A model generated the notes under the pieces. That model saw only the letters and a program-made list of their open reading frames with translations, had not been told where the DNA came from and ran no database searches. Positions 3,038-53,462 of a DNA stretch of 64,000 nt are shown here, piece after piece. Where the stretch lies: contig JAFWYK010000010.1 of the NCBI GenBank assembly GCA_017517685.1, positions 237-64,236 of the forward strand. Direction: 5' to 3'. A program made the position numbers and the translations under genes. How positions within the stretch are numbered: position 1 is the first letter of the stretch; the number at the start of each line of letters is the position of its first letter. The DNA comes from Clostridia bacterium. Its GTDB lineage: Bacteria; Bacillota; Clostridia; TANB77; CAG-508.

Positions 3038-3066
3038 TTGATTTTTTATTCCAAATATGGTGTAAT
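3038..3066 (+). promoter_or_regulatory. sigma-A-type promoter in front of GC-rich cassette A
   Basis: TTGATT, 17 nt, TGTAAT. The composition switch to GC-rich begins about 10 nt downstream. Confidence 0.4.
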
Positions 3067-3119
3067 TATTATAAGTTCGGACTTTACGTCCGTTCAATAT
3101 GAAAGCGAGGTATGACCTA

Positions 3120-3404
3120 ATGATCAAGAAAATCTTAACAACTGCTGCACGGACTATTTTATCATGTGTAGCAATCGCAGCTACCCTTGGCGCACTTTAT
3201 GTCCTCTCTATTGGACTTAGCGCCGCCGCCACGTACGTGAAGGACATCATCTTCAAGCTCTGGACCTATGTGTCTGGAAACTGGATTGCTGTCATCGTTA
3301 TCGTTGTGTTGGTTGCTCTTGGCACGATCGTGTACGACGGTATCTCTGACTCTGTGAAGAGCTGGAACAGAAACCGTAAACACAGAAAAAATGCCGGCGA
3401 GTAA
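3120..3404 (+). CDS. small two-TM membrane protein with basic C-terminal tail (cassette A, foreign composition)
   Basis: ATG at 3120 lies 9 nt after GAGG; the alternative ATG at 3099 has no SD. TM1 ILSCVAIAATLGALYVLSIGL, TM2 NWIAVIVIVVLVALGTIVY, tail KSWNRNRKHRKNAGE. 51 G+C in 3201-3300. Confidence 0.6.
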   Translation: MIKKILTTAARTILSCVAIAATLGALYVLSIGLSAAATYVKDIIFKLWTYVSGNWIAVIVIVVLVALGTIVYDGISDSVKSWNRNRKHRKNAGE

Positions 3405-3433
3405 GGCGAACTGTGAGACCGCGTCTTGAAATG

Positions 3434-3457
3434 CCGGCGAAATTTCGCCGGTTTTTT
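3434..3457 (+). terminator. intrinsic terminator of cassette A
   Basis: Perfect 18-nt palindrome CCGGCGAAATTTCGCCGG followed by T6. Confidence 0.8.
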
Positions 3458-3690
3458 CATTTTTATATATTAAAAAATATATAGGGTTGTGCTTTAGAAT
3501 GAATTTTAAATTAGCTTTTATATTATAGAGGGAAATTAGTAAAGCTATTTGTGTTTTTTTATTAAAATTAATTCTCGAGTGTTTTAGGGTATATAAATAA
3601 GCTATAATCAAAATATAATTAAAAATAAAAATAATCATAAAACCTTTTTTACATGAATATATTGTAACCATGTAAGAGAGGTGTATTTTT

Positions 3691-4530
3691 TTGGAAAAAA
3701 TTTTAGATGAAAACGAGAGAATAAAAAGAGCTGAGGAACTTTATTTTAGAAGAAATAATAAAGAAGTTAGTTTTCAAGGCTGTAAAGCAAATAAAAGCTA
3801 TTATGGAATGAAAAATAAATTGTTATTTCATCTGCTATTAATGTTTAATATTTTTGTCCTAGTATTTGTTATTCAAAACAAAGATTATGTGTTCAGCTAT
3901 GATTTTAATAATCAAATTAATGAATGGATGTTAAAATTATCAAATTATGTAAAAAGTATGGTTTATGAAATAGAAAAAGAAGAAAATAAAAATACTGTAG
4001 AAAATGATAGCGAGATATTAAATGAAAAAAATGAAACAGGTATTGTAAGCAATGAAGATATTCAAGATGATGAAAATAAAATAAACGAAATACAATCAAG
4101 TAGTGCAAGTCTTATGGAAGAAGATGTTAAAAATTTAAAGAATATATACAAATTTGTCAATCCTATATCAGGAGTTATTAGTTCAGAATTTGGTGCAAGA
4201 GAATCAAAATATCAGAATGTTAGAGGATATCACACTGGGATTGATGTTGCCTCAGAAACTGGAACACCAATTGTTGCTAGTATGGAAGGGATTGTTGAAG
4301 AAGTATCAAGTTATGGAGATTATGGAAAACATTTGAAAATAAGATGTAATAATGTAACTACTTTATATGCGCATTGCTCGGAAATCTTTGTAAAAAAAGG
4401 ACAAATTGTTGGCATGGGACAATTAATTGCAGCTGTCGGAAGTACAGGAAATAGTACTGGACCACATTTGCATTTTGAAATCAGGATTGATGATAGATTC
4501 GTAGATCCAGGGAAAGTAATTAAGTTTTAA
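3691..4530 (+). CDS. membrane-anchored M23/LytM metallopeptidase (SpoIVFA/SpoIIQ position)
   Basis: N-terminal TM segment LLFHLLLMFNIFVLVFVI. The C-terminal domain has intact YHTGIDV and GPHLHFE metal motifs. TTG start after AGAGAGG. Confidence 0.75.
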   Translation: MEKILDENERIKRAEELYFRRNNKEVSFQGCKANKSYYGMKNKLLFHLLLMFNIFVLVFVIQNKDYVFSYDFNNQINEWMLKLSNYVKSMVYEIEKEENKNTVENDSEILNEKNETGIVSNEDIQDDENKINEIQSSSASLMEEDVKNLKNIYKFVNPISGVISSEFGARESKYQNVRGYHTGIDVASETGTPIVASMEGIVEEVSSYGDYGKHLKIRCNNVTTLYAHCSEIFVKKGQIVGMGQLIAAVGSTGNSTGPHLHFEIRIDDRFVDPGKVIKF

Positions 4531-4540
4531 AGGAAAATTT

Positions 4541-5149
4541 ATGAAAGTAAGTGTTGATTATAAGATAATTATAGTTATAGGATTATTAATAATTTTTGGA
4601 AAAATAGATTTATATTTTATTTTTGCAGTATCAATTATTTGTCATGAATTGGTTCATATATTGATTGCAAAAATAATGGGCTTTAAGCTTATCGAATTAC
4701 ATTTTGGTATCTTTGGAATGAGTGCTAATATAGCTTTTTTAGGAAAAGTAAAAGTTTTAAGTAGAGTTTTATTTTATATTTCAGGACCTTTAATGAATTT
4801 TTTTATTGCAGAGGTATTTAAAAATATTAATTATGAAGTTACATATATAAATGTTGCCCTTGGAATATTTAATTTATTACCAATTATACCACTAGATGGA
4901 GGGGAGATACTTTTAGAATTAGTTAAAGCATTTATTGGAAGAGATCAAGCTAGTGAAATAATTTTGTGCTTTACTAAAATTTTTCTATTTATAATTTCTA
5001 TTTTGTATGCTGCAATTTTAATTGAAGTAAAGAATATCTTTTTAGTATTTCTATTATTATATTTGTGGTACTTGTATTATATAGAAGATGAGAAATGGAT
5101 GCTGTATAAAAAAGCTAGAAAATGTATAAAAGATATTGAAATAAATTAA
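4541..5149 (+). CDS. M50 site-2 protease, SpoIVFB-like, short form
   Basis: HELVHILIAK (HExxH) in a TM segment, plus NLLPIIPLDGG. 202 aa with no room for a C-terminal CBS domain. Confidence 0.75.
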   Translation: MKVSVDYKIIIVIGLLIIFGKIDLYFIFAVSIICHELVHILIAKIMGFKLIELHFGIFGMSANIAFLGKVKVLSRVLFYISGPLMNFFIAEVFKNINYEVTYINVALGIFNLLPIIPLDGGEILLELVKAFIGRDQASEIILCFTKIFLFIISILYAAILIEVKNIFLVFLLLYLWYLYYIEDEKWMLYKKARKCIKDIEIN

Positions 5150-5194
5150 AAATAATAGTAAATTGTAGATATAAAGTGAAAAGGAAAAAAGTAA

Positions 5195-5635
5195 ATGAAA
5201 AAATATGGAATAATATTAATTTTAATAACAGTAATAATGGTTTTATTAATTGTCGTTAATATAAAACATTCATCAAATGATGGGGTTAATTTGTTAATGC
5301 TAAATAATATGTATTCTGATATTGAAAAAATTGATAATGAGATTGCAATGTATTATTTAAATTATGGATATCTTCCTGTTAACAAAGAAAGAGCTGCAGA
5401 ATTTAAAGATAAATCAATTAACCCTAATGATAGTGAAGAATATTATGAAATTGATTTAAGTGTTCTTGAAGAATTAGATATAACATATGGTAAAAAAGAG
5501 TTTGGAGAAGATGACGTATATATTATAAATTATCAAAGTCATACTGTTTATTATGTAAAAGGTGTGACTTATGGCGAAAATACATATTATACAAGACCAG
5601 TAGAATATGAACAAGTAGAATTAGAAAAGTATTAG
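5195..5635 (+). CDS. hypothetical N-terminally anchored protein
   Basis: ORF with an N-terminal hydrophobic segment IILILITVIMVLLIVV. No motif recognised. Confidence 0.5.
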   Translation: MKKYGIILILITVIMVLLIVVNIKHSSNDGVNLLMLNNMYSDIEKIDNEIAMYYLNYGYLPVNKERAAEFKDKSINPNDSEEYYEIDLSVLEELDITYGKKEFGEDDVYIINYQSHTVYYVKGVTYGENTYYTRPVEYEQVELEKY

Positions 5636-5644
5636 AGGTAAGAT

Positions 5645-6496
5645 ATGAAAGAATTTATAAGAAAACATCCTAATATGGTTGTATTTATTATAGCGATAAT
5701 AATGATTGTGATTAGTTTTTTATATGGTTTCTATATTGCTCAAGAAGAAGCATTTTTTATACCAAATCATGATGAAGAGGCATATATAAGATTAAAGCAA
5801 AATGATGAGTTTGAAGAAGTACATATAACATCAGATGGATTAGATTTGTATGGTTGGGTTAGACCTATAAATAAAGAAGAGAAGAAACCACTTTTAATTA
5901 TGTACTTAGGAAATGCACAAAGTTCATCAAATTTTTTAGCTAATGGTTATTTTTTAGATTATATAGATGATTATCATCTTTTGATAGTTGATTATCCTAA
6001 ATATGGATTGAGTAAAGGAAGTTTAACGGAGAAAGAATTATTTAAATCTGTATTAGGAATATATGATTATGGTAAAACTCTAGAATATGTTGATGAAAAC
6101 AATATCTGTGTTTTAGGATACAGTATTGGTACAGGTATGGCGACATATGTTGCTTCGCAAAGAAATGTAAATGGATTAATATTATTAGCACCATATGATA
6201 ATGCATTAAATTTATATAATGATAATATTAATGTATTTTACGGACCACTTAGAAATATAACAAGATATAAATTAGAGTCTGACAAATATGCTAAAAGTGT
6301 TAAGGCCAAACCATTGATAATTGCAACAAAAAGTGATGAAGTAATTAACTATAAACATGCAGAAGATTTATCAAAAAGCTTTAATGAGTTAGAAAAATTT
6401 TTATTATTAGAAAATCCATCACATGGAGGCCTAATAATAGAAAAAGAAGTTTGGGTGGAAATACAAAATTATTTACAAGAAACTCTTGTCAAATAA
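5645..6496 (+). CDS. alpha/beta hydrolase, membrane anchored
   Basis: SD GAGG. N-terminal TM segment and nucleophile elbow GYSIGTG. Confidence 0.65.
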   Translation: MKEFIRKHPNMVVFIIAIIMIVISFLYGFYIAQEEAFFIPNHDEEAYIRLKQNDEFEEVHITSDGLDLYGWVRPINKEEKKPLLIMYLGNAQSSSNFLANGYFLDYIDDYHLLIVDYPKYGLSKGSLTEKELFKSVLGIYDYGKTLEYVDENNICVLGYSIGTGMATYVASQRNVNGLILLAPYDNALNLYNDNINVFYGPLRNITRYKLESDKYAKSVKAKPLIIATKSDEVINYKHAEDLSKSFNELEKFLLLENPSHGGLIIEKEVWVEIQNYLQETLVK

Positions 6497-6514
6497 GAAA
6501 TTTTATGTTAAAAT
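6486..6514 (+). promoter_or_regulatory. sigma-A-type promoter of the rpsF operon
   Basis: TTGTCA, 17 nt, TAAAAT. Confidence 0.55.
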
Positions 6515-6519
6515 AGACC

Positions 6520-6597
6520 AGTATGAATGCAAGTACGCGTTCATACCCTTACCCATATCACGAGATGGGTTATATATCCAAAAGGAGGTGACAAATA
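6520..6597 (+). promoter_or_regulatory. structured 5' leader of rpsF-ssb-rpsR (possible S6:S18 autoregulatory leader)
   Basis: Two local GC-enriched hairpins, TATGAA..TTCATA and ACCCAT..ATGGGT, just upstream of the SD. An S6 leader is known in Firmicutes, but the motif was not verified here. Confidence 0.3.
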
Positions 6598-6885
6598 ATG
6601 AATAGATACGAAACAGTATTCATTATTAATCCAAATGTTGAGGAAGCTGGAGTTAAAGAATTAACAAAAAAATTCTCAGATTTAATTAATAATGATGGAA
6701 AAGTTGAGTCAGTAGAAGAGTTAGGTAAAAGAAAATTAGCTTATGAAATCAAAAAGAATCCAGAAGGTATTTACGTATTAATTAACTTTGAAGCTGCACC
6801 AAGTTTAATCAAAGAACTTGAAAGAGTATACAGAATTACAGACGAAGTTATTAAATTCATCGTTGTAAGAAAAGACGAAGAATAA
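6598..6885 (+). CDS. rpsF: 30S ribosomal protein S6
   Basis: MNRYETVFII.P family signature, with the rpsF-ssb-rpsR order conserved. Confidence 0.9.
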   Translation: MNRYETVFIINPNVEEAGVKELTKKFSDLINNDGKVESVEELGKRKLAYEIKKNPEGIYVLINFEAAPSLIKELERVYRITDEVIKFIVVRKDEE

Positions 6886-6906
6886 TAAAGAAAGGTGGAA
6901 AACCAA

Positions 6907-7326
6907 ATGAACAAAGTAATTTTAATGGGAAGATTAACAAGAGACCCAGAAGTAAGATATACTCAAACAAATAACACTCTAGTTGCATCATTCAGTCTAG
7001 CTGTTAATAGAAGATTTGCTAGACCAGGAGAAGAAAGACAAGCAGATTTTATTAATATCGTTGCTTGGAATAAAACTGGAGAATTCTGCAGTAAATACTT
7101 CAAAAAAGGTCAACAAGTTTCAATTATTGGAAGAATCCAAACAAGAAGCTGGGATGATGAAAATGGACAAAAACGTTATGCAACAGAAGTAATTGCTGAA
7201 GAAGCTTATTTTGCAGATAGTAAAAGAGATGGAGAAGCATCAGGATTTGAAAGTACATTTGGAGAATCAGTTGCTCAAAGCGCTGAATTCCAAGTTACAG
7301 CATCTGATGATGACCTACCATTCTAG
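6907..7326 (+). CDS. ssb: single-stranded DNA-binding protein
   Basis: MNKVILMGRLTRDPEVRYT OB-fold N-terminus and an acidic tail ending DDDLPF. ATG at 6907 lies 7 nt after GGTGGA. Confidence 0.9.
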   Translation: MNKVILMGRLTRDPEVRYTQTNNTLVASFSLAVNRRFARPGEERQADFINIVAWNKTGEFCSKYFKKGQQVSIIGRIQTRSWDDENGQKRYATEVIAEEAYFADSKRDGEASGFESTFGESVAQSAEFQVTASDDDLPF

Positions 7327-7364
7327 GGTTAATATGGAGTATTAAAGAATAGGAGGAGTTTGAA

Positions 7365-7646
7365 ATGGCTGATAAAAAACAAAATAGAAGAAATAATAGA
7401 AACAACCAAGATGATGATTTCAACCCAAAGTTTAGAAAAATGAGAAAAAAAGTTTGTGCATTATGCAATGACAAAAACTTTGAGTTAGATTATAAAAATG
7501 TTGATCAATTAAGAAAATTCATCAATGAAAAAGGTAAAATATTACCAAGAAGAGCAACAGGTGCTTGTGCTAAACATCAAAGAGAAATCACAACAGCAGT
7601 TAAAAGAGCTAGACACATCGCTATTATTGCTTATTCACAAGACTAA
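7365..7646 (+). CDS. rpsR: 30S ribosomal protein S18 with N-terminal N/R-rich extension
   Basis: KKVC..C......DYKN...L.KFI...GKILPRR.TG.CAKHQR. Confidence 0.9.
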
Positions 7647-7656
7647 TTATAGTATA

Positions 7657-7686
7657 AAAAGCGTTCTTTATAGAACGCTTTTTTTG
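7657..7686 (+). terminator. intrinsic terminator after rpsR
   Basis: AGCGTTC-tttata-GAACGCT followed by a T-run. Confidence 0.8.
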
Positions 7687-7764
7687 TTATTAAAATCTCT
7701 TGCAAATCTTATTCCGAGCATATATAATAAGTAAGAAAATAGAAATAAAAAAGGAGATAATAAT

Positions 7765-8223
7765 ATGAAAAAACGTGGATTTGAAGTTGCAAAAGGATTT
7801 GAGGATGCAGGAATAAACTTACCAGTAAGAAAAACAAAATTCTCAGCAGGATATGATGTTGAAGCAGCAGAAGATACAATAATTCCAGCATTTAAAAGAG
7901 GACAAAAACCAACTTTAGTAAAGACAGGAATTAAAGCTTTTATGGAAGATGATGAAATGTTACTTCTATATAATAGAAGTTCTAATCCAGGAAAAAAAGG
8001 TTTAATACTTGCAAATAGTGTTGGTGTAGTTGATAAAGATTATTATGGAAATCCTGATAATGACGGACATATCATGTTTGCATTTATTAATATAAAAGAA
8101 GAAGATGTTGAAATCAAAAAAGGAGATGCTATTGGACAAGCAATTTTCCAAAAATATTTAGTAACAGATGATGATATTGCAGCAGGTGAAAGAACAGGTG
8201 GATTTGGTTCAACAAGTAAATAA
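7765..8223 (+). CDS. dut: dUTP diphosphatase
   Basis: SAGYD motif, GVVD.DY motif, and C-terminal GGFGSTS. Confidence 0.8.
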   Translation: MKKRGFEVAKGFEDAGINLPVRKTKFSAGYDVEAAEDTIIPAFKRGQKPTLVKTGIKAFMEDDEMLLLYNRSSNPGKKGLILANSVGVVDKDYYGNPDNDGHIMFAFINIKEEDVEIKKGDAIGQAIFQKYLVTDDDIAAGERTGGFGSTSK

Positions 8224-8233
8224 ATAAAGACAC

Positions 8234-8256
8234 AGGGCCTTAGGGCCCTATTTGTT
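8234..8256 (+). terminator. intrinsic terminator after dut
   Basis: AGGGCC-ttag-GGCCCT followed by a weak T-tract. Confidence 0.55.
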
Positions 8257-8318
8257 TGCTCAAAAATAAGGATAATGTAATATAATTGAAAAGAATTTAA
8301 AAAAATCGTTATATTTCT

Positions 8319-8347
8319 TTGACTTTTGCTCAAAAATGTAGTATAAT
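8319..8347 (+). promoter_or_regulatory. sigma-A-type promoter of the carD-family gene
   Basis: TTGACT, 17 nt, TATAAT. The TTTGCTCAAAAAT segment is also present about 68 nt upstream (8253). Confidence 0.55.
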
Positions 8348-8387
8348 TGTAATGTAGTAATTTTAATATTACTTGGAAGGAGTGACG

Positions 8388-8969
8388 ATGATGTTTAAAG
8401 TAGGAGATAAAATTGTATATCCAATGCACGGAGCAGGTGTAATTGAAACAATCGAAGAAAGAGCTATTTTAGATGAAAAACAATCATACTATATTATTAA
8501 AATGCCAGGCGAAGTAAAAGTTATGGTACCTACAGCTAAAGCAGAAGAAATAGGAGTACGTAATATAATAGATAAAGAAACAGCCGGAAAAGTAATAAAT
8601 GTTTTAGAGCAAGATAGCACTGAAATGTCTATGAAATGGAACAAAAGATACAGAGATAATGTTGAAAAGATGAAATCAGGAGACATTTTTGAAGTAGCAG
8701 ACATTGTTAGAAATTTAAGTTTCAAACAAAAAGAAAAAGGGTTATCTACAACTGAAAAGAAAATGCTATTAAATGCTAAACAAATTTTAGTAAGTGAATT
8801 AGTATTAGCTGAAAGTAAAGAAAAAGATGAAATTGAAAGTTTAGTAGAAACAAAAATTAATACATCTTATGAATTACATGGAGTAAATCCAACTGGAATG
8901 CCAAATGTTATTTCTATGCATGATGAACCAGCTGATAACATTGTAAAAAAATTTATCTCAGCTAATTAA
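8388..8969 (+). CDS. CarD/CdnL-family RNA-polymerase-binding regulator
   Basis: MFKVGDKIVYPMHGAGVIE...YY.I. ATG at 8388 follows GGAAGGAG. Confidence 0.8.
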   Translation: MMFKVGDKIVYPMHGAGVIETIEERAILDEKQSYYIIKMPGEVKVMVPTAKAEEIGVRNIIDKETAGKVINVLEQDSTEMSMKWNKRYRDNVEKMKSGDIFEVADIVRNLSFKQKEKGLSTTEKKMLLNAKQILVSELVLAESKEKDEIESLVETKINTSYELHGVNPTGMPNVISMHDEPADNIVKKFISAN

Positions 8970-8991
8970 TTTTAAGATAACATAAAGATAA

Positions 8992-9024
8992 AAGATTATA
9001 TATCAAAAATATATAATCTTTTTT
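8992..9024 (+). terminator. intrinsic terminator (AT-only stem)
   Basis: AAGATTATATAT-caaaa-ATATATAATCTT followed by a T-run. Confidence 0.55.
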
Positions 9025-9147
9025 GACGTTTAAACCCTTAAAATTCAAGGGTTTGTATTATTTTTGTAACGAAAATGAAAAATAATTAACATAAAATGAA
9101 GGATTTAGACACTCTGTGTCGAATAATATAAAAGAAAGGTTTTAAGA

Positions 9148-10932: not shown

Positions 10933-10948
10933 GAGGGAAAGTTAGGAA

Positions 10949-12481
10949 ATGAAGAAAGAAAAAGATTTAGTAGAAGAAATTAAAGAAGAAAAACCTACAA
11001 CAAAGAAAAGAGCTAAAAAAGAAGAAACAGTTAACGAAGTAGAAGTAAAAGAAGTTAAAAAAACAAGAAAATCTACTAAAAAAGAAGAACCAGCAGAGAA
11101 AGTAAAAGAAGTAAAAACAAAAAAAGCAAAAGCTGAAGAGATAAAAGAAGAAAAGCCAAAAAAAGCAGAAGCTGAAGAGATAAAAGAAGAAAAACCAAAA
11201 AAAGCAACTAAAAAAGCTAAAAAAGAAGCTGTTGTTGAAGAAGCTATAGAAGAAGCAAAACCTGAAAAGAAAAAAAGAGCTTCTAAGAAAAAAGAAAATG
11301 TAGAAGTAGAACAATTAGAACTTGTTCCAGTAGAAGAAGTTAAAGAAGAAAAAGAAACAAAAACTAAAAAAGCAGATAAAAAAGAAGAAGCGAAACCTGA
11401 TCAAGAAAAAGATAAAATTTTACAAATCGTAAGTACAGCTAAAGAAAAAGGAAAAATCACATATGGTGAACTTGCAGCTGAACTAGGTGAAGCTAATTCA
11501 GAGCAAATTGATAAAATTTTTGAAGCTTTTGAAGAAGTTGGAGTTAACGTTTTAAAAGATGATGATGATTTCTTAGAGCCTGATTTAGATGATTTAAGTG
11601 AAGTTGAAGATATTAAATTAGATGAAGTTGATTTAGTTAATATCGAAGGTGTTAGCGTTGATGATCCAGTTAGAATGTATTTAAGAGAAATTGGTAGAAT
11701 CCCACTTTTAACATTTGAAGAAGAATTAGAACTTGCACAACAAGTTTTAGAAGGTGATGAAAGAGCTAGACAAAAACTTGCTGAATCAAACTTAAGATTA
11801 GTTGTAAGTATTGCTAAAAAATATGTTGGTAGAGGAATGTTATTCTTAGATTTAATTCAAGAAGGTAACATGGGATTAATCAAAGCAGTTGAAAAATTTG
11901 ATTATAAAAAAGGATATAAATTTAGTACTTATGCTACATGGTGGATTAGACAAGCTATAACAAGAGCTATAGCAGATCAAGCAAGAACAATCAGAATACC
12001 TGTACACATGGTTGAAACAATTAATAAATTAATTCGTACTTCAAGACATTTACTTCAAATATTAGGAAGAGAACCATCTCCAGAAGAAATCGCTGAAGAA
12101 ATGGAAATTCCAGTAGAAAAAGTAATGGAAATTCAAAAAATTGCTCAAGATCCAGTTTCATTAGAAACACCAATTGGTGAAGAAGATGATAGCCACTTAG
12201 GAGACTTTATTCCAGATGATGAATCTCCAGCACCACATGATTCTGCAGCATATACATTATTGAAAGAACAACTTGAAGAAGTAATGAGTACATTAACACC
12301 AAGAGAAGCAAAAGTCTTAAAACTAAGATTTGGACTAGAAGATGGAAAAGCTAGAACACTAGAAGAAGTAGGAAAAGAATTCCAAGTAACTCGTGAAAGA
12401 ATTAGACAAATTGAAGCAAAAGCATTAAGAAAATTAAGACATCCAAGTAGAAGCAAGAGATTAAAAGATTACATGAGTTAA
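10949..12481 (+). CDS. rpoD: primary sigma factor RpoD/SigA with about 160-aa Lys/Glu-rich N-terminal extension
   Basis: Regions 1.2-4.2 are recognisable: [56 protein letters not shown]. Follows dnaG as in the MMS operon. Confidence 0.92.
11132..11206 (+). repeat. 39-bp tandem duplication inside rpoD ([12 protein letters not shown] x2)
   Basis: GCTGAAGAGATAAAAGAAGAAAA[G/A]CCAAAAAAAGCA occurs at 11132-11167 and again at 11171-11206. Confidence 0.85.
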
Positions 12482-12513
12482 TAGAATTATGTAAATTAAT
12501 TTGAGAAATTTAG

Positions 12514-12544
12514 AAAAAAGCCTTGATTTTTAAGGCTTTTTTTG
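12514..12544 (+). terminator. intrinsic terminator after rpoD
   Basis: AGCCTT-gattttt-AAGGCT followed by a T-run. Confidence 0.8.
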
Positions 12545-12616
12545 TTATAATTAGTGTAGAATTGTTATTTTTATGCAAAGAAATGAGGTGAAACTAGGCT
12601 TAAGCTTAGAAAAAAG

Positions 12617-13000
12617 ATGGGATTTTTAAGAGAATTTGGAAATAAATTAGGTTCAGCTATGAAAACAATATTTGCTGATGATCCAGAACAATATGTTGAA
12701 GACGTAGATGGAGCAAGCTTAACAACAGTTGCTGCAATTGGACTTAAAGAAGGAAAAATCAATCAAAAAGAAGCTGTTGAGTTAATTAATGCTCAAAGAA
12801 AAAATGGAGAAAAAGCTGATCTTGTTTCTCAAAGAGTTGAGAGAGATATTGTTTTAACTCCAAGTGATAAAACTGATTTCAGAAATGATGCAACAATGGA
12901 CGAAGCTCAAAGAGTTAAAGTTGCTTCAAAACCAGCTGGAGAATTAGAAAATCACGAAAGAGTGCCTGGTGGAAGAGAAAGAGACGAAAAGTCTAAATAA
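12617..13000 (+). CDS. hypothetical protein
   Basis: 127-aa ORF with host-like composition, its own terminator and a weak SD. No motif recognised. Confidence 0.45.
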   Translation: MGFLREFGNKLGSAMKTIFADDPEQYVEDVDGASLTTVAAIGLKEGKINQKEAVELINAQRKNGEKADLVSQRVERDIVLTPSDKTDFRNDATMDEAQRVKVASKPAGELENHERVPGGRERDEKSK

Positions 13001-13020
13001 ATAGTTAAAAATTAGTTTAA

Positions 13021-13048
13021 AAAGACATCTTTTAAAGATGTCTTTTTT
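13021..13048 (+). terminator. intrinsic terminator
   Basis: AAAGACATCTTT-t-AAAGATGTCTTT followed by a T-run. Confidence 0.8.
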
Positions 13049-13107
13049 GTTTTGATATTTTTAATATTAAAAAACTCAGAAAAATGCTTAAAAACTAAAT
13101 ATTTTTC

Positions 13108-13136
13108 TTGACAAACAGGCTGAAAAGTGTTAAAAT
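13108..13136 (+). promoter_or_regulatory. sigma-A-type promoter of rplU-rpmA
   Basis: TTGACA, 17 nt, TAAAAT, with TGt upstream. Confidence 0.6.
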
Positions 13137-13139
13137 TTA

Positions 13140-13236
13140 TTACTGTAAACTGCTTAACTAGGGTCCATAAATACTATTTTTAATAGTTACCCAAGTTGGA
13201 AGTTAGCGAGATTACGAAAAGGGAGGTGCATTTTAA
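13140..13236 (+). promoter_or_regulatory. about 100-nt 5' leader of rplU (possible L21 leader)
   Basis: Long leader between the predicted +1 and the SD GGGAGG. An L21 leader is known in Firmicutes, but its structure was not verified here. Confidence 0.3.
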
Positions 13237-13596
13237 ATGTACGCAATAATTGAAGCATGTGGTAGACAATACAAAGTACAAGAAGGAGAAGCAGTATATT
13301 TCGAAAAATTAGATGTTGAAGAAGGAAAAAAAGTTTCTTTTGATAAAGTTGTTTTAATATCTAACGACGGAAAAGTACAAGTTGGAAATCCTTATGTTGC
13401 TAATGCTAAAGTTGAAGGAAAAGTTGTGTCTAACGGTAAAGCAAAGAAAATTTTAGTTTTCAAATACAAAGCTAAAAAGAATGAAAGAAAAACAAGAGGA
13501 CATAGACAAGACTACACTAAAGTAGAAATTACTTCAATAAAAGTTAAAGCAGAAAAAGCTGAAAAAGCTGAAAAAACAGAAAAAGCAGCTAAATAG
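13237..13596 (+). CDS. rplU: 50S ribosomal protein L21 with KAEKAEK C-terminal tail
   Basis: MYAIIE.GG.QYKV.EG N-terminus. Confidence 0.9.
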
Positions 13597-13673
13597 TTAA
13601 CTGCTAATTATTATATCGAAATTAAAAAAGTGTGATATAAATGAAATTATAAAGCGAAAGGAGTGAATTTTTC

Positions 13674-13928
13674 ATGGCACACAAAAAAGGTCAAGGTAGT
13701 GTTAAGAACGGAAGAGATAGTGAGTCAAAGAGACTTGGTGTCAAAAAAGCTGATGGACAAATAGTTAAAGCTGGAAACATTATAGTAAGACAAAGAGGAA
13801 CTAACGTACATCCAGGAACTAATGTTGGAATCGGTAGCGATGATACTTTATTTGCTTTAGTAGATGGAACAGTTAAATTTGAAAGAAAAGGTAAAGACAA
13901 AAAACAAGTAAGTGTTTATCCAGCATAG
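13674..13928 (+). CDS. rpmA: 50S ribosomal protein L27 (no N-terminal propeptide)
   Basis: [24 protein letters not shown]...[15 protein letters not shown]. Confidence 0.92.
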
Positions 13929-13949
13929 TAAATAAAAATAATAAAAATG

Positions 13950-13977
13950 CGAGACAAATTATTTTGTCTCGTTTTTT
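13950..13977 (+). terminator. intrinsic terminator after rpmA
   Basis: CGAGACAAA-ttat-TTTGTCTCG followed by T6. Confidence 0.85.
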
Positions 13978-14087
13978 GTTTAAAAAAACTATTAAAAATA
14001 TTACTTTTTTAGTAAAAAAGGTTTGAAAAAAAACGTAATATATGATTAAATAGTTATATAAAATTTTGCTATAAGGAGAGTAAGCGT

Positions 14088-15203: not shown

Positions 15204-15211
15204 TTTTTATA

Positions 15212-15240
15212 AAACTCTCGGAAAAACCGAGAGTTTTTCT
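15212..15240 (+). terminator. intrinsic terminator
   Basis: ACTCTCGG-aaaaa-CCGAGAGT followed by a T-run. Confidence 0.85.
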
Positions 15241-15321
15241 TTTTGTAAAATGTTATTTAAAAAAGTCTTAAAAATACGTAATTGTTAATAAAAAATAATG
15301 AAAAAGAAATATACTTGTATA

Positions 15322-17170: not shown

Positions 17171-17179
17171 AGGTAATTT

Positions 17180-19301: not shown

Positions 19302-19302
19302 C

Positions 19303-47679: not shown

Positions 47680-49038
47680 GTGGATAACAACACAGAATTG
47701 TTTAAAAGATTAATTGAAAATATAGACAGCGAAGCTGTAAGAATACAAATAGCTAATACTTTACCAGAATTATCGATTCTTTCAGAACGTAATTTATATG
47801 CATTTAAAGAATTACTTGAAAAGTATATGACTTATAAAGATGGTAAAGAACAAGTTAGTAAAAAGTGGAGAGCTATATATCAAAATTCACCATCTCCAAC
47901 AGTACCGCTTTCAGTAATGTTGCAAGATGAAAATGTAAAAAGAGAAGCATTTGAAAGTATGGAATTTCTAATAAATTATGGTGATTTTAGAGATTCAGCA
48001 CCATTAGCAGAAGTAATTGGTAGCGTCGAAGGGGGAGCACATGTAATTGCCAATAATTTTGAAGAATTTTTTGCTAATTGTTTAACAGATTTATCAGCTA
48101 TAACATTACCTTGTATGGAAACACCACTTGGTAGAAGAAAAATTAAAGATAATTTTGATAGAATAAAAGGTAGATATTCAGAAAATCAATGGGATACATC
48201 AATAAGAGGATTCTTTGAAACTGTTAAAAGAATGAAAGGGCATCCTGAATTTGCAGAAGAATATAAAAAATATGGATATTTAGCACAAGTCTATGAAGAA
48301 GCAGGAATACCAACGGTTCAGTTTAAAGATCCAATGGAAGTTTTAGAACTTGCAAAACAAGGCTATGATTTCTCAGAAGCTAACATGTTATCAGGTGCTA
48401 GATTTATAAAAGATGAATCCTTTGTAGCATTATTAAAATCACCAGACTTAGAAGAAAAGATGATAGTATTAAAAGAAATCTCAAAAGGTCAACCGTTTAG
48501 ATTTAAAAGCACAGGTTCAACTAGTTTGATTCTTCAAACCGGAGATATGATAGTAAAAATTGGAGCTGGAAGAAGAAAGTATGAAGTTCCATACCATCCA
48601 AGAATAATGATGCCATATTTTAGAAAAAGATATCAAGATGGTTCTTGTATTGAAGTATTTAATTATGGAGATACAAAATCAGCAGATATTACTGATGAAA
48701 AATTATTAGAGATTTATAAGGAACTAGAGGATGCCGGAATTTTATGGGGAGATGCTAGAAAAGAAAATTTAGTTGTACTTAAAAAAGATAATATATTACC
48801 AGATTATATAGCAAGTGATGAATTTAATGTTATGGGATTTTTAGAGCATCCTAGATTTCCAACAAACAAACATAAACCATTAAAAAAAGGTGACATAGTT
48901 GTTTGTGATTTGGATATGCTATATGTAAAGGGAGATCCAAATTATCAAAGAGGAATATTCGATGATGTTGTCTATAATTACATAGATGAACAAGAAAGAA
49001 ACGGGATTTATGCCCGTAGTATGGAATTAGATGAGTAG
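47680..49038 (+). CDS. orphan protein with C-terminal minimal protein-kinase-like domain
   Basis: GTG at 47680 follows AAGGGGA; the alternative ATG at 47623 has no SD. MIVKIG (Lys), GDARKENL (D..x..N catalytic loop, 48751-48768), and VCDLDM (metal-binding Asp). Confidence 0.6.
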   Translation: MDNNTELFKRLIENIDSEAVRIQIANTLPELSILSERNLYAFKELLEKYMTYKDGKEQVSKKWRAIYQNSPSPTVPLSVMLQDENVKREAFESMEFLINYGDFRDSAPLAEVIGSVEGGAHVIANNFEEFFANCLTDLSAITLPCMETPLGRRKIKDNFDRIKGRYSENQWDTSIRGFFETVKRMKGHPEFAEEYKKYGYLAQVYEEAGIPTVQFKDPMEVLELAKQGYDFSEANMLSGARFIKDESFVALLKSPDLEEKMIVLKEISKGQPFRFKSTGSTSLILQTGDMIVKIGAGRRKYEVPYHPRIMMPYFRKRYQDGSCIEVFNYGDTKSADITDEKLLEIYKELEDAGILWGDARKENLVVLKKDNILPDYIASDEFNVMGFLEHPRFPTNKHKPLKKGDIVVCDLDMLYVKGDPNYQRGIFDDVVYNYIDEQERNGIYARSMELDE

Positions 49039-49053
49039 TTAGGAGATTTATAC

Positions 49054-50820
49054 GTGGATAGTAAATATAATTGGAATTTAAAAGAAATTTTTGAAAATGA
49101 AGATGCTTTAGAAAATTCTATAAAAGATTTATATGGATTAATTGAAAAAATTAAAACATATGAGGGAAGACTTTCAGAAAGCGTTAGTGTTATATATGAA
49201 TATTTTAAAGTATTAGAAAAAGCTTTAGAACTACATGAAAGAATATATGCATATTCAATGTTTAAATATCATCAAGATATGAGTTCTCAAGATGCGATTA
49301 AACTTTATAAAAGAGTTGAGAAAATTACAACAGATTTTTCAGAAGCAGAAAGTTTTGCATCACCAGAAATAAGTAAAATCGATGATTCAAAATTAGAAGA
49401 ATACTTGCAAGATGAAAGAATGAAAGAATTTGAAAAATCCATAAGAGATATTATGAAAGATAAAAAACATATTTTATCTGAAGAGGTAGAAAAAGTACTT
49501 GCTCAATATGGTGAGATATTTAGTGCATCAGAAAATACATTTGATATATTTACAAATACTGAATTTGAATTTGAAAATATTTATGATGATAATGGAAATG
49601 AGTTAAAAATGAATGCAGCATTATATTCAAAATATTTAACAGATAAGTCAGAAAATGTAAGAAGACAAGCATTTGAATCAATGTACAAATTATATAAAAA
49701 ACATATAAATACAATTACAGAACTTTATTTAACAAGGGTAAAATCAAGAGTAATTTCAAGCAGATTAAGAAAGTTTAATTCTTCTTTAGATAGTGCAACA
49801 AATGCCGATGATTCAAATGAAGCTGTATATCATACATTACTTGATGCGGTTAACAAAAACTTATATTTAAATCATGAATATTTAAAGTTAAAAGCAAAAC
49901 TTTTAGGTAAAGAAAAGTTAGAAATGTATGATGTATATCTGAATACATTAGAAACAGAAAATACTCATATAGAATATGAAGATGCAAAAAATACAGTGCT
50001 AGATGCATTAAGTATTTTAGGTCAAGAATATACAGATAAATTAAGAGAAGCATTTGATAATAATTGGCTTGATGTATATGAAAAAGATAATAAGATGGGT
50101 GGAGCTTATAGTATGGGAGTTCATACATTACATCCATTTGTACTTTTAAATTATATAAATTCATCAAGAGATGTATCAACAATAGCTCACGAGCTTGGAC
50201 ATTCAATGCATAGTTATTATGCAAGCAAGAATCAAAATATAATTAATGCAAATTATACAATTATGGTTGCAGAAGTTGCTTCAACAGTAAATGAGTTATT
50301 ACTTGCTAATTATTTAATAAATAAAGAACAAGATACAAATAAAAAAGCAGCTTTAATAAATGAGCAACTTGATATGATAAGGGCTACATTAATAAGACAA
50401 TCAATGTTTGCTGAATTTGAAAGAGATGTACATTCAAAAATTGAACAAAATGAAAGTTTAACATCAGATACTTTAAATGAAATTTATTATGAACTTGTTA
50501 AAAAATATTTTGGTGAATCAACAAATGCAAATGAAGAGATAAAATATGAATGGGCGAGAATACCACATTTTTATAGATGTTTCTATGTATATAAATATGC
50601 AACTGGTATAACATCAGCAATAGTTATTGCAAGTAAAATATTAGAAGGTGAACCAGGATATGTTGAAAGATATATTAATATGCTTAGCCAAGGCGGAGCA
50701 AAAGATTCTTTAACACTATTAAGAATGGTTGATGTAGATCTAGAAAAACCAGAAACATATGATAAAGCATTTAAATATATTGAAAATAATTTAAATGAAC
50801 TTAAAAGTTTGATAAATTAG
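49054..50820 (+). CDS. pepF: oligoendopeptidase F (M3B)
   Basis: IAHELGHSMH zinc motif and a family-typical length of 588 aa. Confidence 0.85.
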   Translation: MDSKYNWNLKEIFENEDALENSIKDLYGLIEKIKTYEGRLSESVSVIYEYFKVLEKALELHERIYAYSMFKYHQDMSSQDAIKLYKRVEKITTDFSEAESFASPEISKIDDSKLEEYLQDERMKEFEKSIRDIMKDKKHILSEEVEKVLAQYGEIFSASENTFDIFTNTEFEFENIYDDNGNELKMNAALYSKYLTDKSENVRRQAFESMYKLYKKHINTITELYLTRVKSRVISSRLRKFNSSLDSATNADDSNEAVYHTLLDAVNKNLYLNHEYLKLKAKLLGKEKLEMYDVYLNTLETENTHIEYEDAKNTVLDALSILGQEYTDKLREAFDNNWLDVYEKDNKMGGAYSMGVHTLHPFVLLNYINSSRDVSTIAHELGHSMHSYYASKNQNIINANYTIMVAEVASTVNELLLANYLINKEQDTNKKAALINEQLDMIRATLIRQSMFAEFERDVHSKIEQNESLTSDTLNEIYYELVKKYFGESTNANEEIKYEWARIPHFYRCFYVYKYATGITSAIVIASKILEGEPGYVERYINMLSQGGAKDSLTLLRMVDVDLEKPETYDKAFKYIENNLNELKSLIN

Positions 50821-50925
50821 GCTTTTTTTCACACAAAAAACATAATTTTGTTATATATATAATAATGTGATATAAAAAATAATAAAAGAAAGTAGTAAAT
50901 ATAGCTATATTGGAGGTAGTAATAT

Positions 50926-51606
50926 ATGGGCGATTTAACAGTATTAGTAGTAGATGATGAATCAAGAATGAGAAAGTTAATTAGAGACTTTTTAATACAA
51001 AAGAATTTTAACATCTTAGAAGCAGAAGATGGAGAAAGAGCACTAAAGGTTTATGAAGAAAATAAAGAAAAAATAAATTTAATATTACTAGATGTTATGA
51101 TGCCTAAATTAGATGGTTGGTCAGTTCTTCGTAATATCCGTCAAGAAAATAAAAAATTACCTATTATCATGTTAACTGCAAGAGCAGAAGAACAAGATGA
51201 ACTATTTGGATTTGAACTTGGAGTAGATGAATATATAACAAAACCATTTAGTCCTAAAATTTTAGTAGCAAGAGTTGAAGCTTTATTAAAAAGATCAATG
51301 CCAGAAGTTAAAGAATTAAAAAGTTACGATGGTATTGTTATTGATAATGAAGGAAGAACTGTTACTGTTGATGGGAAACAAGTAGAATTAAGTTTTAGAG
51401 AATATGAATTATTAAAATATTTATTAGATAATGAAAATATTGCATTATCAAGAGATAAAATTTTAAATACAGTATGGAACTATGACTATTATGGAGATTC
51501 AAGAACAATTGATAGTCATATCAAAAAGATTAGACATAAATTAGGTAAAAAAGGTAAACATATTCAAACAATTCGTGGTATAGGATATAAATTCGAAATA
51601 AAATAA
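50926..51606 (+). CDS. OmpR-family response regulator
   Basis: Receiver domain (VVDDE, LILLDVMMP) plus a winged-helix output domain (TVW......SRTIDSHI..IR.K). Confidence 0.88.
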   Translation: MGDLTVLVVDDESRMRKLIRDFLIQKNFNILEAEDGERALKVYEENKEKINLILLDVMMPKLDGWSVLRNIRQENKKLPIIMLTARAEEQDELFGFELGVDEYITKPFSPKILVARVEALLKRSMPEVKELKSYDGIVIDNEGRTVTVDGKQVELSFREYELLKYLLDNENIALSRDKILNTVWNYDYYGDSRTIDSHIKKIRHKLGKKGKHIQTIRGIGYKFEIK

Positions 51607-51618
51607 TAGGGGATATTT

Positions 51619-53133
51619 ATGAAGTTTAAGAATATATTCAAATCTATTCGTGCAAAATTATTTTTAACTTTGTGTATAGTAATTGTTATGATAATTGCAT
51701 TCTTTGTAATTATTAGTAATACTGTTCTAGAAACACTTTACTATACGTCAAAAAAAGATGCATTACTTAATGCTTTTGATTATGTACAAAATAACATACC
51801 AAAAGAATTTAAAGAAGATGAAGCGAATCATTTGAAATCTGATTTAGAGAAAGTATGTGTTGAATATAGTTTTGAAATTGTAATTGAAGACGGAGAAAAT
51901 CAAATATATGTAACAAATAAGAATTTCTCTAAAGATTTTGGTACAGTAAATGATATTACATATAATATTGATTATAGTATTTTTAATAAATCGGATATAA
52001 TGTACGCTAGAAATGATGTTTCTTTAAGAAAAATAATGAGCAAATCAAATGGAATGGATTATGTTTTATTAAAAGGTCATTTAGAAAATGGAAATGAAAT
52101 ATTTATTAGAACACCAATTTCACCAATAGAAGAAAGTGCTGAAATAACTAATAACTTTATCTATGTAATTGGATTTTTGAGTATAGTATTAGGTGGATTT
52201 GCTATATTAGTTATTACTGAAAGATTCACTAAACCAATTGAAGAATTAAATGACATTGCAAATGAAATGAGCAATTTGAATTTCAAAAGAAAATATAGAA
52301 TAAATGATTCTGAAGACGAAATTGATGAACTTGGAAAAAGTATAAATACATTATCAGATAAACTTGAAGAAACAATTCTTCAACTTAAGAAAAATAATTC
52401 TGATCTAGAAAAAGACATTGAAGCAAAATCAAAAATTGATGAGATGAGAAAACAATTTATCTCAGACGTATCTCATGAATTAAAAACTCCAATTGCTTTA
52501 ATTCAAGGATATGCTGAAGGCTTAGTAGAAAATGTAACTACTGATGAAGAAAGTAGAAAGTTCTATACAGAAGTTATTTTAGATGAAGCTAATAAGATGG
52601 ATAAACTTGTAAAAAGATTATTAGAACTTATGAAGCTTGAATATGAAGATAGAAAATTAAATGATGTTAAGTTTGACTTAGTAGAGTTAATTAATGAAGT
52701 AATTAAAAACTCACAAGTAATGCTTAAAGAAAATAAAATTGAAGTAGAATTTAATCAAGATAAACCAGTAATGGTTTTTGCAGATGATTTTTATATTGAA
52801 CAAGTTGTAACTAATTATTTTACAAACGCTATTAAAAATAATATTGAGGTAGGGGGAGTAAAGAAAATAAAAATCTCTATCAAAAAAGGAAAAGAACAAG
52901 GTAAAGTAAGAGTTACAGTATTCAATACTGGTAAAAAGATTGATGAAGAAAATTTAAATAGAATTTGGACAAGATTCTATAAAATTGATGAATCAAGAGA
53001 TCGTTCTAAAGGTGGTACTGGTATTGGTTTAGCACTTGTAAAAGCTATAATGACAAAATATAAAAGTCAATATGGTGTAACTAATAAAAAAGATGGAGTA
53101 GAATTCTATTTTGAAATTACAGAAGCAAAATAA
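51619..53133 (+). CDS. sensor histidine kinase (two TM segments, HAMP, HisKA, HATPase)
   Basis: H-box FISDVSHELKTP, plus an N box and G boxes (GGTGIGLALV). Confidence 0.88.
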   Translation: MKFKNIFKSIRAKLFLTLCIVIVMIIAFFVIISNTVLETLYYTSKKDALLNAFDYVQNNIPKEFKEDEANHLKSDLEKVCVEYSFEIVIEDGENQIYVTNKNFSKDFGTVNDITYNIDYSIFNKSDIMYARNDVSLRKIMSKSNGMDYVLLKGHLENGNEIFIRTPISPIEESAEITNNFIYVIGFLSIVLGGFAILVITERFTKPIEELNDIANEMSNLNFKRKYRINDSEDEIDELGKSINTLSDKLEETILQLKKNNSDLEKDIEAKSKIDEMRKQFISDVSHELKTPIALIQGYAEGLVENVTTDEESRKFYTEVILDEANKMDKLVKRLLELMKLEYEDRKLNDVKFDLVELINEVIKNSQVMLKENKIEVEFNQDKPVMVFADDFYIEQVVTNYFTNAIKNNIEVGGVKKIKISIKKGKEQGKVRVTVFNTGKKIDEENLNRIWTRFYKIDESRDRSKGGTGIGLALVKAIMTKYKSQYGVTNKKDGVEFYFEITEAK

Positions 53134-53138
53134 AAGTA

Positions 53139-53170
53139 AAGTCTTAGGTAGAAATGCCTAAGACTTTTTT
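53139..53170 (+). terminator. intrinsic terminator after the two-component operon
   Basis: GTCTTAGG-tagaaatg-CCTAAGAC followed by T6. Confidence 0.85.
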
Positions 53171-53173
53171 GCA

Positions 53174-53219
53174 TAAAAAAAGAGGGAACCACAGCCTTAG
53201 CGGCCGCGGAATCCCTTTT
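53174..53219 (-). terminator. intrinsic terminator of cassette D (overlaps its stop codon)
   Basis: Minus-strand RNA AGGGAUUCC...GGUUCCCU followed by CUUUUUUU. The stem is imperfect. Confidence 0.5.
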
Positions 53220-53388
53220 TTGTGGTGAGCGGAACAGAAATGTCGACTTTTCTACAGACTCTGAATTCATCGCCTTCTTGGATAACATAAGCCTTAAGCT
53301 CAAGATATCTATCTACTTTCCGAAGGTGAGCGAGTCTTTGGTCCGCGTCTTCTTGGGTTTTTTCCATGAATACATTTGTAAATGTCAT
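53197..53388 (-). CDS. 63-aa soluble protein, unknown (cassette D, foreign composition)
   Basis: ATG lies 8 nt after GGAGGG. MTFTNVFMEKTQEDADQRLAHLRKVDRYLELKAYVIQEGDEFRVCRKVDISVPLTTKKGFRGR. 46 G+C in 53201-53300. Confidence 0.5.
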   Translation of the reverse strand: MTFTNVFMEKTQEDADQRLAHLRKVDRYLELKAYVIQEGDEFRVCRKVDISVPLTTKKGFRGR

Positions 53389-53433
53389 ATGAAAAGCCCT
53401 CCGTTTCGATATAATTGTTGATTCGACTCTTTA

Positions 53434-53462
53434 ATTATATCATAATTTACATAAAATTACAA
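53434..53462 (-). promoter_or_regulatory. promoter of cassette D, overlapping the pflA stop codon
   Basis: On the minus strand: TTGTAA, 17 nt, TATAAT, with TGa extended -10. Confidence 0.5.

Follow-up and report, generated by a model that had tools for sequence, protein, structure and literature searches.

Why do four small G+C-rich genes stand among the housekeeping genes of an AT-rich genome, and how long have they been there? The question is raised by a stretch of 64 kb of Clostridia DNA of about 28% G+C (contig JAFWYK010000010.1; this whole stretch is hereafter called the window). An earlier note, made from the sequence alone, had pointed out in it four dispersed single-gene cassettes of foreign composition, which are here named A, B, C and D in the order of their positions. 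The cassettes are long-term residents of fixed sites in a Candidatus Scatovivens-like lineage and were lost in some of its species. On balance, we consider them to be four old, mutually unrelated, vertically inherited and genus-specific small-protein genes, of which the GC-rich synonymous composition is probably maintained by a gene-specific force.

Composition of the four cassettes

The 55 other open reading frames (ORFs) of the window were used as the comparison set. Their G+C content at third codon positions (GC3) has a mean of 0.125, a standard deviation of 0.029 and a maximum of 0.19. The GC3 values of A (0.55), B (0.38), C (0.52) and D (0.41) deviate from this set with z values of 8.6 to 14.7. 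In a 200-nt profile, the cassette regions are the sole islands with a G+C content of at least 0.41 in the 64 kb, the region of B being weaker (0.31-0.37). The six values that the earlier note had counted by hand were exact on recount: 51, 41, 50 and 46 G+C per 100 nt at positions 3201-3300, 40761-40860, 44821-44920 and 53201-53300, with 28 per 100 nt at 2101-2200 and 12 of 60 at 3541-3600 as comparators.

The deviation is seen in the codons as well. The ratio of CGN to AGR arginine codons is 2:2 in A, 6:1 in B, 8:1 in C and 3:4 in D, against 53:638 in the background. Four-fold degenerate sites carry 2.2% C and 3.6% G in the core genes (5.8% G+C) versus 25-37% C and 11-18% G in the cassettes (39-50% G+C). 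The codons avoided by the host that are present in the cassettes include CTC, CGG, CGC and CTG. CTC is absent from the 718 leucine codons of the core genes and occurs 59 times in the C family, and CGG is absent from 395 core arginine codons and occurs 13 times in the C family. In alignments with the homologues, common synonymous codons stand opposite these host-rare ones, which indicates a standard decoding. The codon usage of the cassettes is similar to that of a moderate-GC Firmicute; their G+C content at second codon positions (GC2) and their amino-acid usage are unlike those of a high-GC donor.

Averaged over 26 genes, the G+C content is 0.21-0.25 between positions -180 and -60 upstream, 0.32 over the initial 30 nt of the coding sequence (CDS) and 0.39-0.44 deeper in, and it is down to 0.24 at +90 after the stop codon. 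The GC excess is limited to the coding sequence, so that the promoters and leaders look native.

Homologues of the cassettes at the same sites

Among 185,579 species-representative genomes, the top matches of the window protein Mfd are uncultured gut metagenome-assembled genomes (MAGs) labelled Candidatus Scatovivens or "uncultured Clostridia" (93-94% identity). They are followed by a block at 77-88% identity and then by an outgroup at about 60%. Homologues of C are located on the minus strand between mfd and the gene of a SpoU-type methylase in the relatives L017-L020, L022, L024, L026, L032, L035 and L095, and probably in L030, with identities to the window protein from 75% down to about 22%. 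The same site is empty, with a gap of 46-90 bp between mfd and the methylase gene, in L021, L023, L025, L027, L028, L038 and L083. Occupied and empty sites are interleaved in the Mfd tree, in an arrangement that is most readily explained by a single early gain of C followed by several losses. The C tree broadly matches the Mfd tree, and the two classes of C alleles (NPRSAIVF-type and HDSIR-type) follow the Mfd clades. L017 and L018 are sister tips in the Mfd tree, with Mfd about 94% and 93% identical to that of the window; despite this, the partial C of L017 is 45% identical to the window protein and the C of L018 75%.

The search for family C with a profile hidden Markov model (HMM) in 1.84 billion representative proteins yielded about 48 clusters. 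All six distant members that were placed are found at the site between mfd and the methylase gene (P0040, P0057, P0071, P0073, P0076 and L184; L184 came from a metagenome scan, and in the short contig of P0076, L201, only the mfd end is visible). These six members have a GC3 of 0.43-0.60 versus 0.07-0.14 in their neighbours, or 0.27-0.29 G+C in their flanks. One distant member sits in a lineage of which Mfd is just 71% identical, and its GC3 is still 0.60. The degenerate DNA motif for the conserved C-terminal peptide of C, scanned over the 185,579 species genomes (596 Gb), gave six matches, all at this same site and in genomes of 24-27% GC. Four loci were recovered by a scan of metagenome contigs, all in the same lineage, and word-indexed homologue searches gave six proteins with C alone, nine with the C-family alignment and three with D. 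Two scans of viral contigs, with C and D only as queries and sensitive to close relatives only, detected no relatives. In every genome examined (24-31% GC), family C is restricted to one site, one orientation and one lineage.

Some members of family C depart from the usual form. L035 contains two tandem paralogues (11479-12733; GC3 0.59 and 0.41), and short versions of 85-95 aa that correspond to the C-terminal half only are found in L026 (13528-13815), L032 (13528-13785) and L194 (about 1575-1856). Two proteins from public metagenome contigs are composite. P0029 is a clean mosaic of two C alleles, with 100% identity to the L018 type in residues 1-100 and 99% identity to the L184/P0028 type in residues 101-170; in P0031, residues 1-129 of C are joined to an unrelated tail of 68 aa. 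Either these two sequences reflect a real shuffling of alleles or they are chimeric short contigs.

Homologues of B occupy the same site between the Gate-domain gene and mfd (the gate-mfd site), upstream of mfd, in five species: L018 (49% identity, E-value 8e-20, GC3 0.30), L021 (GC3 0.46), L022 (0.47), L024 (0.52) and L034 (0.28). B is absent in L019, L020 and L025. The gate-mfd spacer of relatives holds further genes with an elevated GC3 (L033 6965-9289, L091 8420-9592 and L095 7647-9818). They comprise two repeat proteins, one of 430 aa in L033 (GC3 0.48) and one of 223 aa (0.31), two ORFs of about 190 aa with a GC3 of 0.30-0.38 and, in L095, an H+-pyrophosphatase (0.36). This spacer seems to be a general hot spot of foreign DNA in the genus. 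Homologues of D are found downstream of pflA in four species, namely L018 (77% identity, GC3 0.38), L021 (0.33), L022 and L024 (0.26), and D is absent in L025, L026, L038 and L095. For A, a homologue at the equivalent site, after the PRC-barrel gene, was detected in L099 (83 aa, 28% identity, E-value 1e-10, GC3 0.35), and L100 has an 89-aa positional analogue (GC3 0.40). The site of A is empty in L097 and L098, and a scan of the genome collection with A gave no match.

The comparison of syntenic sites had been proposed in the earlier note, according to which the same GC-rich genes at the same loci throughout the lineage would mean ancient native genes and not recent insertions; this is the distribution that we observe. 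Since some related species have empty sites, the cassettes are insertion/deletion units in evolutionary terms.

Coding nature and divergence of the cassettes

The exact proteins A (P0001), C and D are present in public collections; dozens of contigs carry variants of C, and more than 100 carry D. Identical synteny occurs in more than 20 independent assemblies from ENA and Logan. C has a ratio of nonsynonymous to synonymous divergence (dN/dS) of 0.09-0.17 and D one of 0.21, versus 0.04-0.09 for their neighbouring genes, and the dN of C and D is three to six times that of the neighbours. Both are under purifying selection at the protein level and evolve faster than their neighbours. The alignments of family C show that amino-acid motifs are kept while the DNA has diverged; most members display the motif L-x-Y-x-E-L-x-x-x-Q-x-I-V-N-P-x-I-x-x-H-D-S-I-R-V.

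In their synonymous divergence, C and D resemble their surroundings. Their dS is comparable with that of the flanks, and the identity at four-fold sites between the window and L018 is 0.50 for C and 0.71 for D, with 0.49-0.66 for four flanking genes. When nine haplotypes of the 7.5 kb around C are compared, they differ by about 0.5%, to the same extent within C as in the flanks, and the within-species diversity is 0.4-0.8% in C versus 0.3-0.6% in the flanks.

Searches in Rfam gave nothing for the cassettes at the gathering score; the E-value mode produced only sub-threshold ctRNA matches, driven by the terminators. The folding z-scores of whole transcripts are -2.0 to -2.7 and derive largely from the terminators; those of the CDSs alone, calculated against synonymous-codon shuffles, have a mean of about -1.9, equal to that of control genes. 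None of the four proteins has an above-threshold match in Pfam, PHROGs, PADLOC or NCBIfam; in PHROGs and PADLOC, C and D have no matches at all and A and B have weak ones, driven by their transmembrane segments.

A search for terminal repeats at the cassettes, direct or inverted, gave only AT-rich chance matches, no k-mer of at least 9 nt is shared by three or more of them, and no motif is common to their promoters or leaders. There is no recombinase or integrase beside the cassettes, their neighbours being core housekeeping genes, and the 64-kb window has no tRNA gene. Here our results agree with the earlier note, which had reported no adjacent integrase, tRNA or terminal repeats and had found the flanking core genes intact. 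Mobile cassettes (integrons, elements derived from miniature inverted-repeat transposable elements or insertion sequences, or tRNA-targeting elements) were rejected, as there are no repeats, recombinase or tRNA and family C occurs at a single site. Hypermutation like that of diversity-generating retroelements was also rejected: the CDSs are not repeated, and the diversity of C is about equal to that of its flanks.

Maintenance or decay of the GC-rich composition

GC3 is elevated in every family member examined (0.35-0.55 in family A, 0.28-0.52 in B and 0.26-0.41 in D); in family C its mean is 0.43 and its range 0.25-0.60 (n = 20). The genes neighbouring the cassette homologues have a GC3 of 0.07-0.16. 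Since the GC-richness is retained over the entire radiation, calling the cassettes ancient native genes does not account for this composition.

The rate at which an initial GC excess would be lost can be estimated from mfd. At its synonymous sites, the state (S for G or C, W for A or T) shows a correlation of about 0.2 between the window and the genus relatives, and of 0.04-0.12 for some deeper taxa. From the value of about 0.2, it follows that the root-to-tip retention of an initial GC excess is at most 0.45, and therefore that a passive decay needs an ancestral GC3 of at least 1 for the lineages that are now at 0.55-0.60. The range of 0.25-0.60 in C at similar core divergence would also need differences of more than five-fold in decay rate between lineages. 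In family C, the ratio is 42:5 for CTG:CTA, 4:48 for GCG:GCA and 4:26 for GGG:GGA, and in the core genes CTG:CTA is 6:59. The pattern is not that of a uniform decay, since CTG:CTA is 42:5 and yet GCG:GCA is 4:48.

The per-site rates of single-nucleotide polymorphisms (SNPs) at S and W sites are the same in C and in its flanks, by which a special mutation regime in C was rejected. These equal rates indicate that the mutational input in C is ordinary; any maintenance therefore acts at fixation, by selection or by a conversion-like bias, and not through special mutation. As neither the flanks nor the untranslated parts are affected, biased gene conversion is not an attractive candidate.

Each gene probably goes back to one ancient event, an acquisition or a birth, that preceded the radiation of the genus, and no special insertion route would be needed. 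The composition would be held away from the mutational equilibrium of the genome, which is about 6% G+C at four-fold sites. The most likely force would be a weak selection on synonymous composition, of roughly 4Nes ~2 per site (with Ne the effective population size and s the selection coefficient), which could hold GC3 near 0.5 against an equilibrium near 0.1. Concerning its purpose, one may speculate on a throttled or conditional translation through host-rare codons, or on long-lived AU-poor mRNAs. That selection has actively held the host-rare, GC-rich codon usage through the radiation of the genus, in a gene-specific "compositional homeostasis", is a tentative proposal to which we give somewhat less than an even chance.

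Several observations weigh against a maintained composition, and a number of them would suit an old horizontal gene transfer (HGT) that is still ameliorating, with a donor GC3 of about 0.8-0.9, an entry in the ancestor of the genus and a passive drift to the AT-rich equilibrium. A three-taxon non-stationary maximum likelihood analysis (window, L184 and L018), which has low power, is compatible with such a history, as it did not reject a decay that starts at a root GC3 of about 0.72 and tends to 0.10 (2ΔlnL = 1.4), and the family mean of 0.43 is reachable from a donor GC3 of about 0.85 at a retention of about 0.45. The within-species SNPs in C are five S>W versus two W>S, too few to decide, with per-site rates like those of the flanks; parsimony polarisation in C gives 14 S>W versus 11 W>S, a count that would suggest stationarity but is biased by compositional skew and multiple hits. 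The GC3 values of 0.25-0.60 among lineages look as if these stood at different stages, and the same genomes contain other clearly foreign genes of intermediate GC3, such as the H+-pyrophosphatase of L095 and the 430-aa gene of L033. In addition, the cassettes have no excess of mRNA structure versus control genes, hence no independent sign of a selective agent; the homology of A with its positional counterparts is weak, that with L099 alone being significant, and this without composition correction; and the relatives compared are all MAGs, with a species-tree depth that rests on one protein, Mfd. We nevertheless regard decay from an old transfer as rather unlikely. It would require the ancestral GC3 of at least 1 and the more than five-fold rate differences given above, and the codon-box-specific G:A ratios argue against a uniform decay. 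No donor homologue was found in the 1.84 billion representative proteins or the 185,579 species genomes, the GC2 and amino-acid usage are unlike those of a high-GC donor, and the decay would have to be caught midway in four unrelated families at once.

The earlier note had offered three options, namely several recent and scarless acquisitions by a new intergenic route, the components of one dispersed system, and an artefact or engineering; none of them is favoured by the data. The composition does deviate from that of the host, as in a recent HGT islet, but same-site homologues of B, C, D and probably A are found in species across the genus, the C alleles follow the Mfd tree, and in C neither the synonymous divergence nor the within-species diversity differs from that of the flanks; no donor lineage was found, every C member examined being in one lineage. 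Alternatively, the genes might have been acquired or replaced recently and repeatedly, by a scarless and site-specific route, from a reservoir of about 45-50% GC that has escaped sampling. This would agree with the codon usage like that of a moderate-GC Firmicute, with the very different C alleles of the sister tips L017 and L018 (45% versus 75%), with the apparent recombination of two alleles in P0029 and with the various foreign genes collected in the gate-mfd spacer of relatives. We consider it quite improbable, as no such reservoir appeared in any collection searched, family C is confined to one site, orientation and lineage with allele classes that follow the host tree, the promoters and leaders are AT-rich and host-like with a GC excess that ends at the CDS borders, there are no repeats, att-like motifs, shared k-mers, recombinase or tRNA, and C is as diverse as its flanks. 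No more credit can be given to a single dispersed and co-regulated accessory system, for example of membrane effectors with soluble partners (toxin/immunity or defence). All four cassettes do have a common design, being monocistronic and rich in GC-rich codons, with a sigma-A-type promoter and a strong Shine-Dalgarno (SD) sequence; B and D are found together in the window, L018, L021, L022 and L024 and are both absent in L025, and the MAG CAZYST01 has A-, B- and C-like genes whereas the MAG CANEHB01 is without A and C. However, this co-occurrence is confounded with phylogeny and is not strict, since L021 has B and D without C and L019 and L020 have C without B; the four proteins have neither motifs nor domains in common, the promoters and leaders have no common motifs, and the four protein-family databases gave no above-threshold match. 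Lastly, the ORFs might be incidental to structured non-coding RNAs or to artefacts of assembly or engineering. GC-rich sequence is poor in stop codons and yields long ORFs in several frames, as with the 169-aa antisense ORF called over A (see below), and the whole-transcript folding z-scores are negative. We hold this to be very improbable: structured RNAs were rejected on the absence of any Rfam family at the gathering score, the dN/dS of 0.09-0.21 and a CDS structure equal to that of controls, to which the conservation of the protein over diverged DNA and the confident AlphaFold2 model of C can be added, and artefact or engineering was ruled out, since many independent assemblies from ENA and Logan contain exactly these proteins and junctions.

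Organisation of the cassettes and their proteins

Judged from its predicted signals, each cassette is a transcription unit of its own, with an AT-rich and native-looking predicted promoter, a strong SD sequence and an intrinsic terminator (Table 1). The ORF sizes of 94, 77, 170 and 63 aa and the SD strings GAGG, GAAGGAG, GGGAGG and GGAGGG are as stated in the earlier note, and a terminator was found after each cassette as it had described. Its assignment of one sigma-A promoter to each cassette stands for B, C and D, of which the predicted promoters are consensus matches only and have a TG-extended -10 element; A did not pass the sigma-A consensus scan. Hydropathy and structural models agree with its division into two membrane proteins with charged tails (A and B) and two soluble proteins (C and D).

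Table 1. Coordinates of the cassettes and of their predicted signals in the window.
Feature	Position	Strand	Description
Cassette A CDS	3120..3404	+	94 aa; GC 0.47, GC3 0.55
Intrinsic terminator of A	3433..3458	+	GCCGGCGAAATTTCGCCGG then T run
Predicted sigma-A promoter of B	40516..40544	+	TTGAAT, 17 nt, TG-n-TATAAT (TG-extended -10)
Cassette B CDS	40703..40936	+	77 aa; GC 0.38, GC3 0.38
Intrinsic terminator of B	41032..41063	+	14-bp stem then T run
Bidirectional terminator	44762..44793	both	common to mfd (plus strand) and C (minus strand), convergent pair
Cassette C CDS	44802..45314	-	170 aa, soluble; GC 0.46, GC3 0.52
Predicted sigma-A promoter of C	45358..45386	-	GTGACT, 17 nt, TG-n-TATAAT (TG-extended -10)
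Second hairpin, bidirectional	53138-53167	both	common to D and the histidine-kinase gene, convergent pair
Terminator-like hairpin directly after D	53187..53205	-	predicted
Cassette D CDS	53197..53388	-	63 aa, soluble; GC 0.43, GC3 0.41; downstream of pflB-pflA, same strand
Predicted sigma-A promoter of D	53434..53462	-	TTGTAA, 17 nt, TG-n-TATAAT (TG-extended -10); overlaps pflA end

The protein A contains two hydrophobic segments, one at about residues 10-37 and the other at about 47-79, together with a basic tail, NRNRKHRKNAGE; it would measure 101 aa if translation began at another in-frame ATG, at position 3099. An exact 12-nt direct repeat, AAATGCCGGCGA, is present in the final codons of A (3389-3400) and in the 5' arm of the terminator (3429-3440). 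The 3' end of the A CDS could possibly pair with the 3' arm of the terminator and so form a translation-dependent alternative hairpin. A also carries GCCGCCGCC and two GCCGGC sites. An ORF of 169 aa with an ATG start lies antisense over A (3162-3671, minus strand); some gene callers call it in place of A, and it is an annotated gene in several public assemblies (L202, L203). We regard it as spurious, as it starts in the AT-rich spacer and is not conserved in L099 or L100, and it looks like a by-product of the stop-poor GC-rich sequence.

B has one N-terminal transmembrane helix and a tail that is strongly charged with Lys, Arg and Glu. A leader of about 150 nt (40545-40702), which matches no Rfam family, appears to separate its start codon from the predicted promoter. 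For C, a 197-aa form starting at 45395 is unlikely, since it would run through the promoter. The AlphaFold2 model of C (predicted local distance difference test, pLDDT, 82.6; predicted template-modelling score, pTM, 0.80) consists of two tandem alpha-beta-beta-alpha-beta-beta halves. Foldseek detected no match for it in the PDB with an E-value below 1e-3 (query-normalised template-modelling score, TM-score, at most about 0.39). The model of D (pLDDT 71) has a beta-alpha-beta-beta topology; with Foldseek, it likewise has no PDB match with an E-value below 1e-3, the short partial alignments giving a query-normalised TM-score of at most about 0.56. The half-SPOR-like and PulM-like resemblances that Foldseek gave for the models of C and D were set aside as generic. 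A PDB profile search gave no match. The sequence GCGGCCGCGG at 53199-53208, at the 3' end of the D CDS around the stop codon, includes a NotI site, and such an octamer is extremely improbable for a genome whose four-fold sites have about 6% G+C.

The remainder of the window is occupied by genes of sporulation and housekeeping, among them sigG, mfd, pepF and pflB/pflA and the genes of a PRC-barrel protein, of M23 and M50 peptidases, of the ribosomal protein S6, of a SpoU-type methylase and of a two-component system. No Rfam family, riboswitches and T-boxes included, reaches the gathering score in the 64 kb; a Clostridia DNA of this length without tRNA, riboswitch or T-box is somewhat unusual.

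Comparison with known systems

The case comes down to an evolutionary puzzle, modest yet genuine, which rests on MAG data. Our literature searches found nothing specific on such GC-rich resident genes or on the genome features of the Candidatus Scatovivens-like genus. The proteins, two small membrane proteins and two that are modelled as new small alpha/beta folds, are specific to a genus of common animal-gut Clostridia. If their composition is maintained, neighbouring genes under one mutation regime would stand at an equilibrium GC3 about five-fold apart, a rare natural contrast that bears on the long-running question of selection on bacterial G+C and on synonymous sites. Synonymous composition would then have a functional role, as a rare-codon translational gate or in exceptionally stable AU-poor mRNAs, and the cassettes would offer a natural case for telling selection on GC apart from mutation bias and from gene conversion.

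Four classes of known elements can be compared with the cassettes. GC-rich islands in AT-rich genomes reportedly mark structured RNA genes, as described by Klein, Misulovin and Eddy. The cassettes resemble these islands by their sharp G+C peaks in a genome of about 28% GC; they differ from them by the lack of an Rfam match, by clear coding signatures and by a CDS structure similar to that of control genes. The type I toxins (Fst, TxpA and YonT-like) share several characteristics with A and B, which are small, hydrophobic and monocistronic, with a charged C-terminal tail, a strong SD sequence and a terminator. However, A and B are longer than typical members at 77-94 aa, and C and D, being soluble, are outside this class. 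Against the NCBIfam model YonT_type_I_tox, B obtains an E-value of 0.046 and 13.8 bits, far below the cutoff of 45 bits, and the promoter scans showed no convincing convergent promoter or antisense RNA gene at A or B.

Atypical composition is routinely taken as the flag of a recent horizontal transfer, and in the amelioration framework of Lawrence and Ochman, islets of atypical composition are said to be read as HGT that ameliorates toward the host. Bacterial ORFans are typically AT-richer than their host. With ORFans and HGT islets the cassettes have in common their short length, their narrow clade, their atypical codons, their own promoter and terminator, their presence/absence variation and an evolution faster than that of the core. 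They differ in being GC-richer than the host, in keeping one fixed locus through a genus-level radiation, and in a GC3 that has not converged on that of the host though the synonymous sites have turned over. The strong compositional flag (GC3 z values of 9-15) on old genes at fixed loci calls for caution in the use of compositional island callers.

Genes tuned by rare codons are represented by the bldA/TTA-dependent genes of Streptomyces and by the non-optimal codons of the clock genes FRQ and KaiBC. Here the likeness is one of logic only, as a small set of genes keeps codons that are rare in the host and the bias is confined to the CDS. The bias of the cassettes is a general GC enrichment and not that of one codon, so that the relation to these systems is one of analogy and not of membership.

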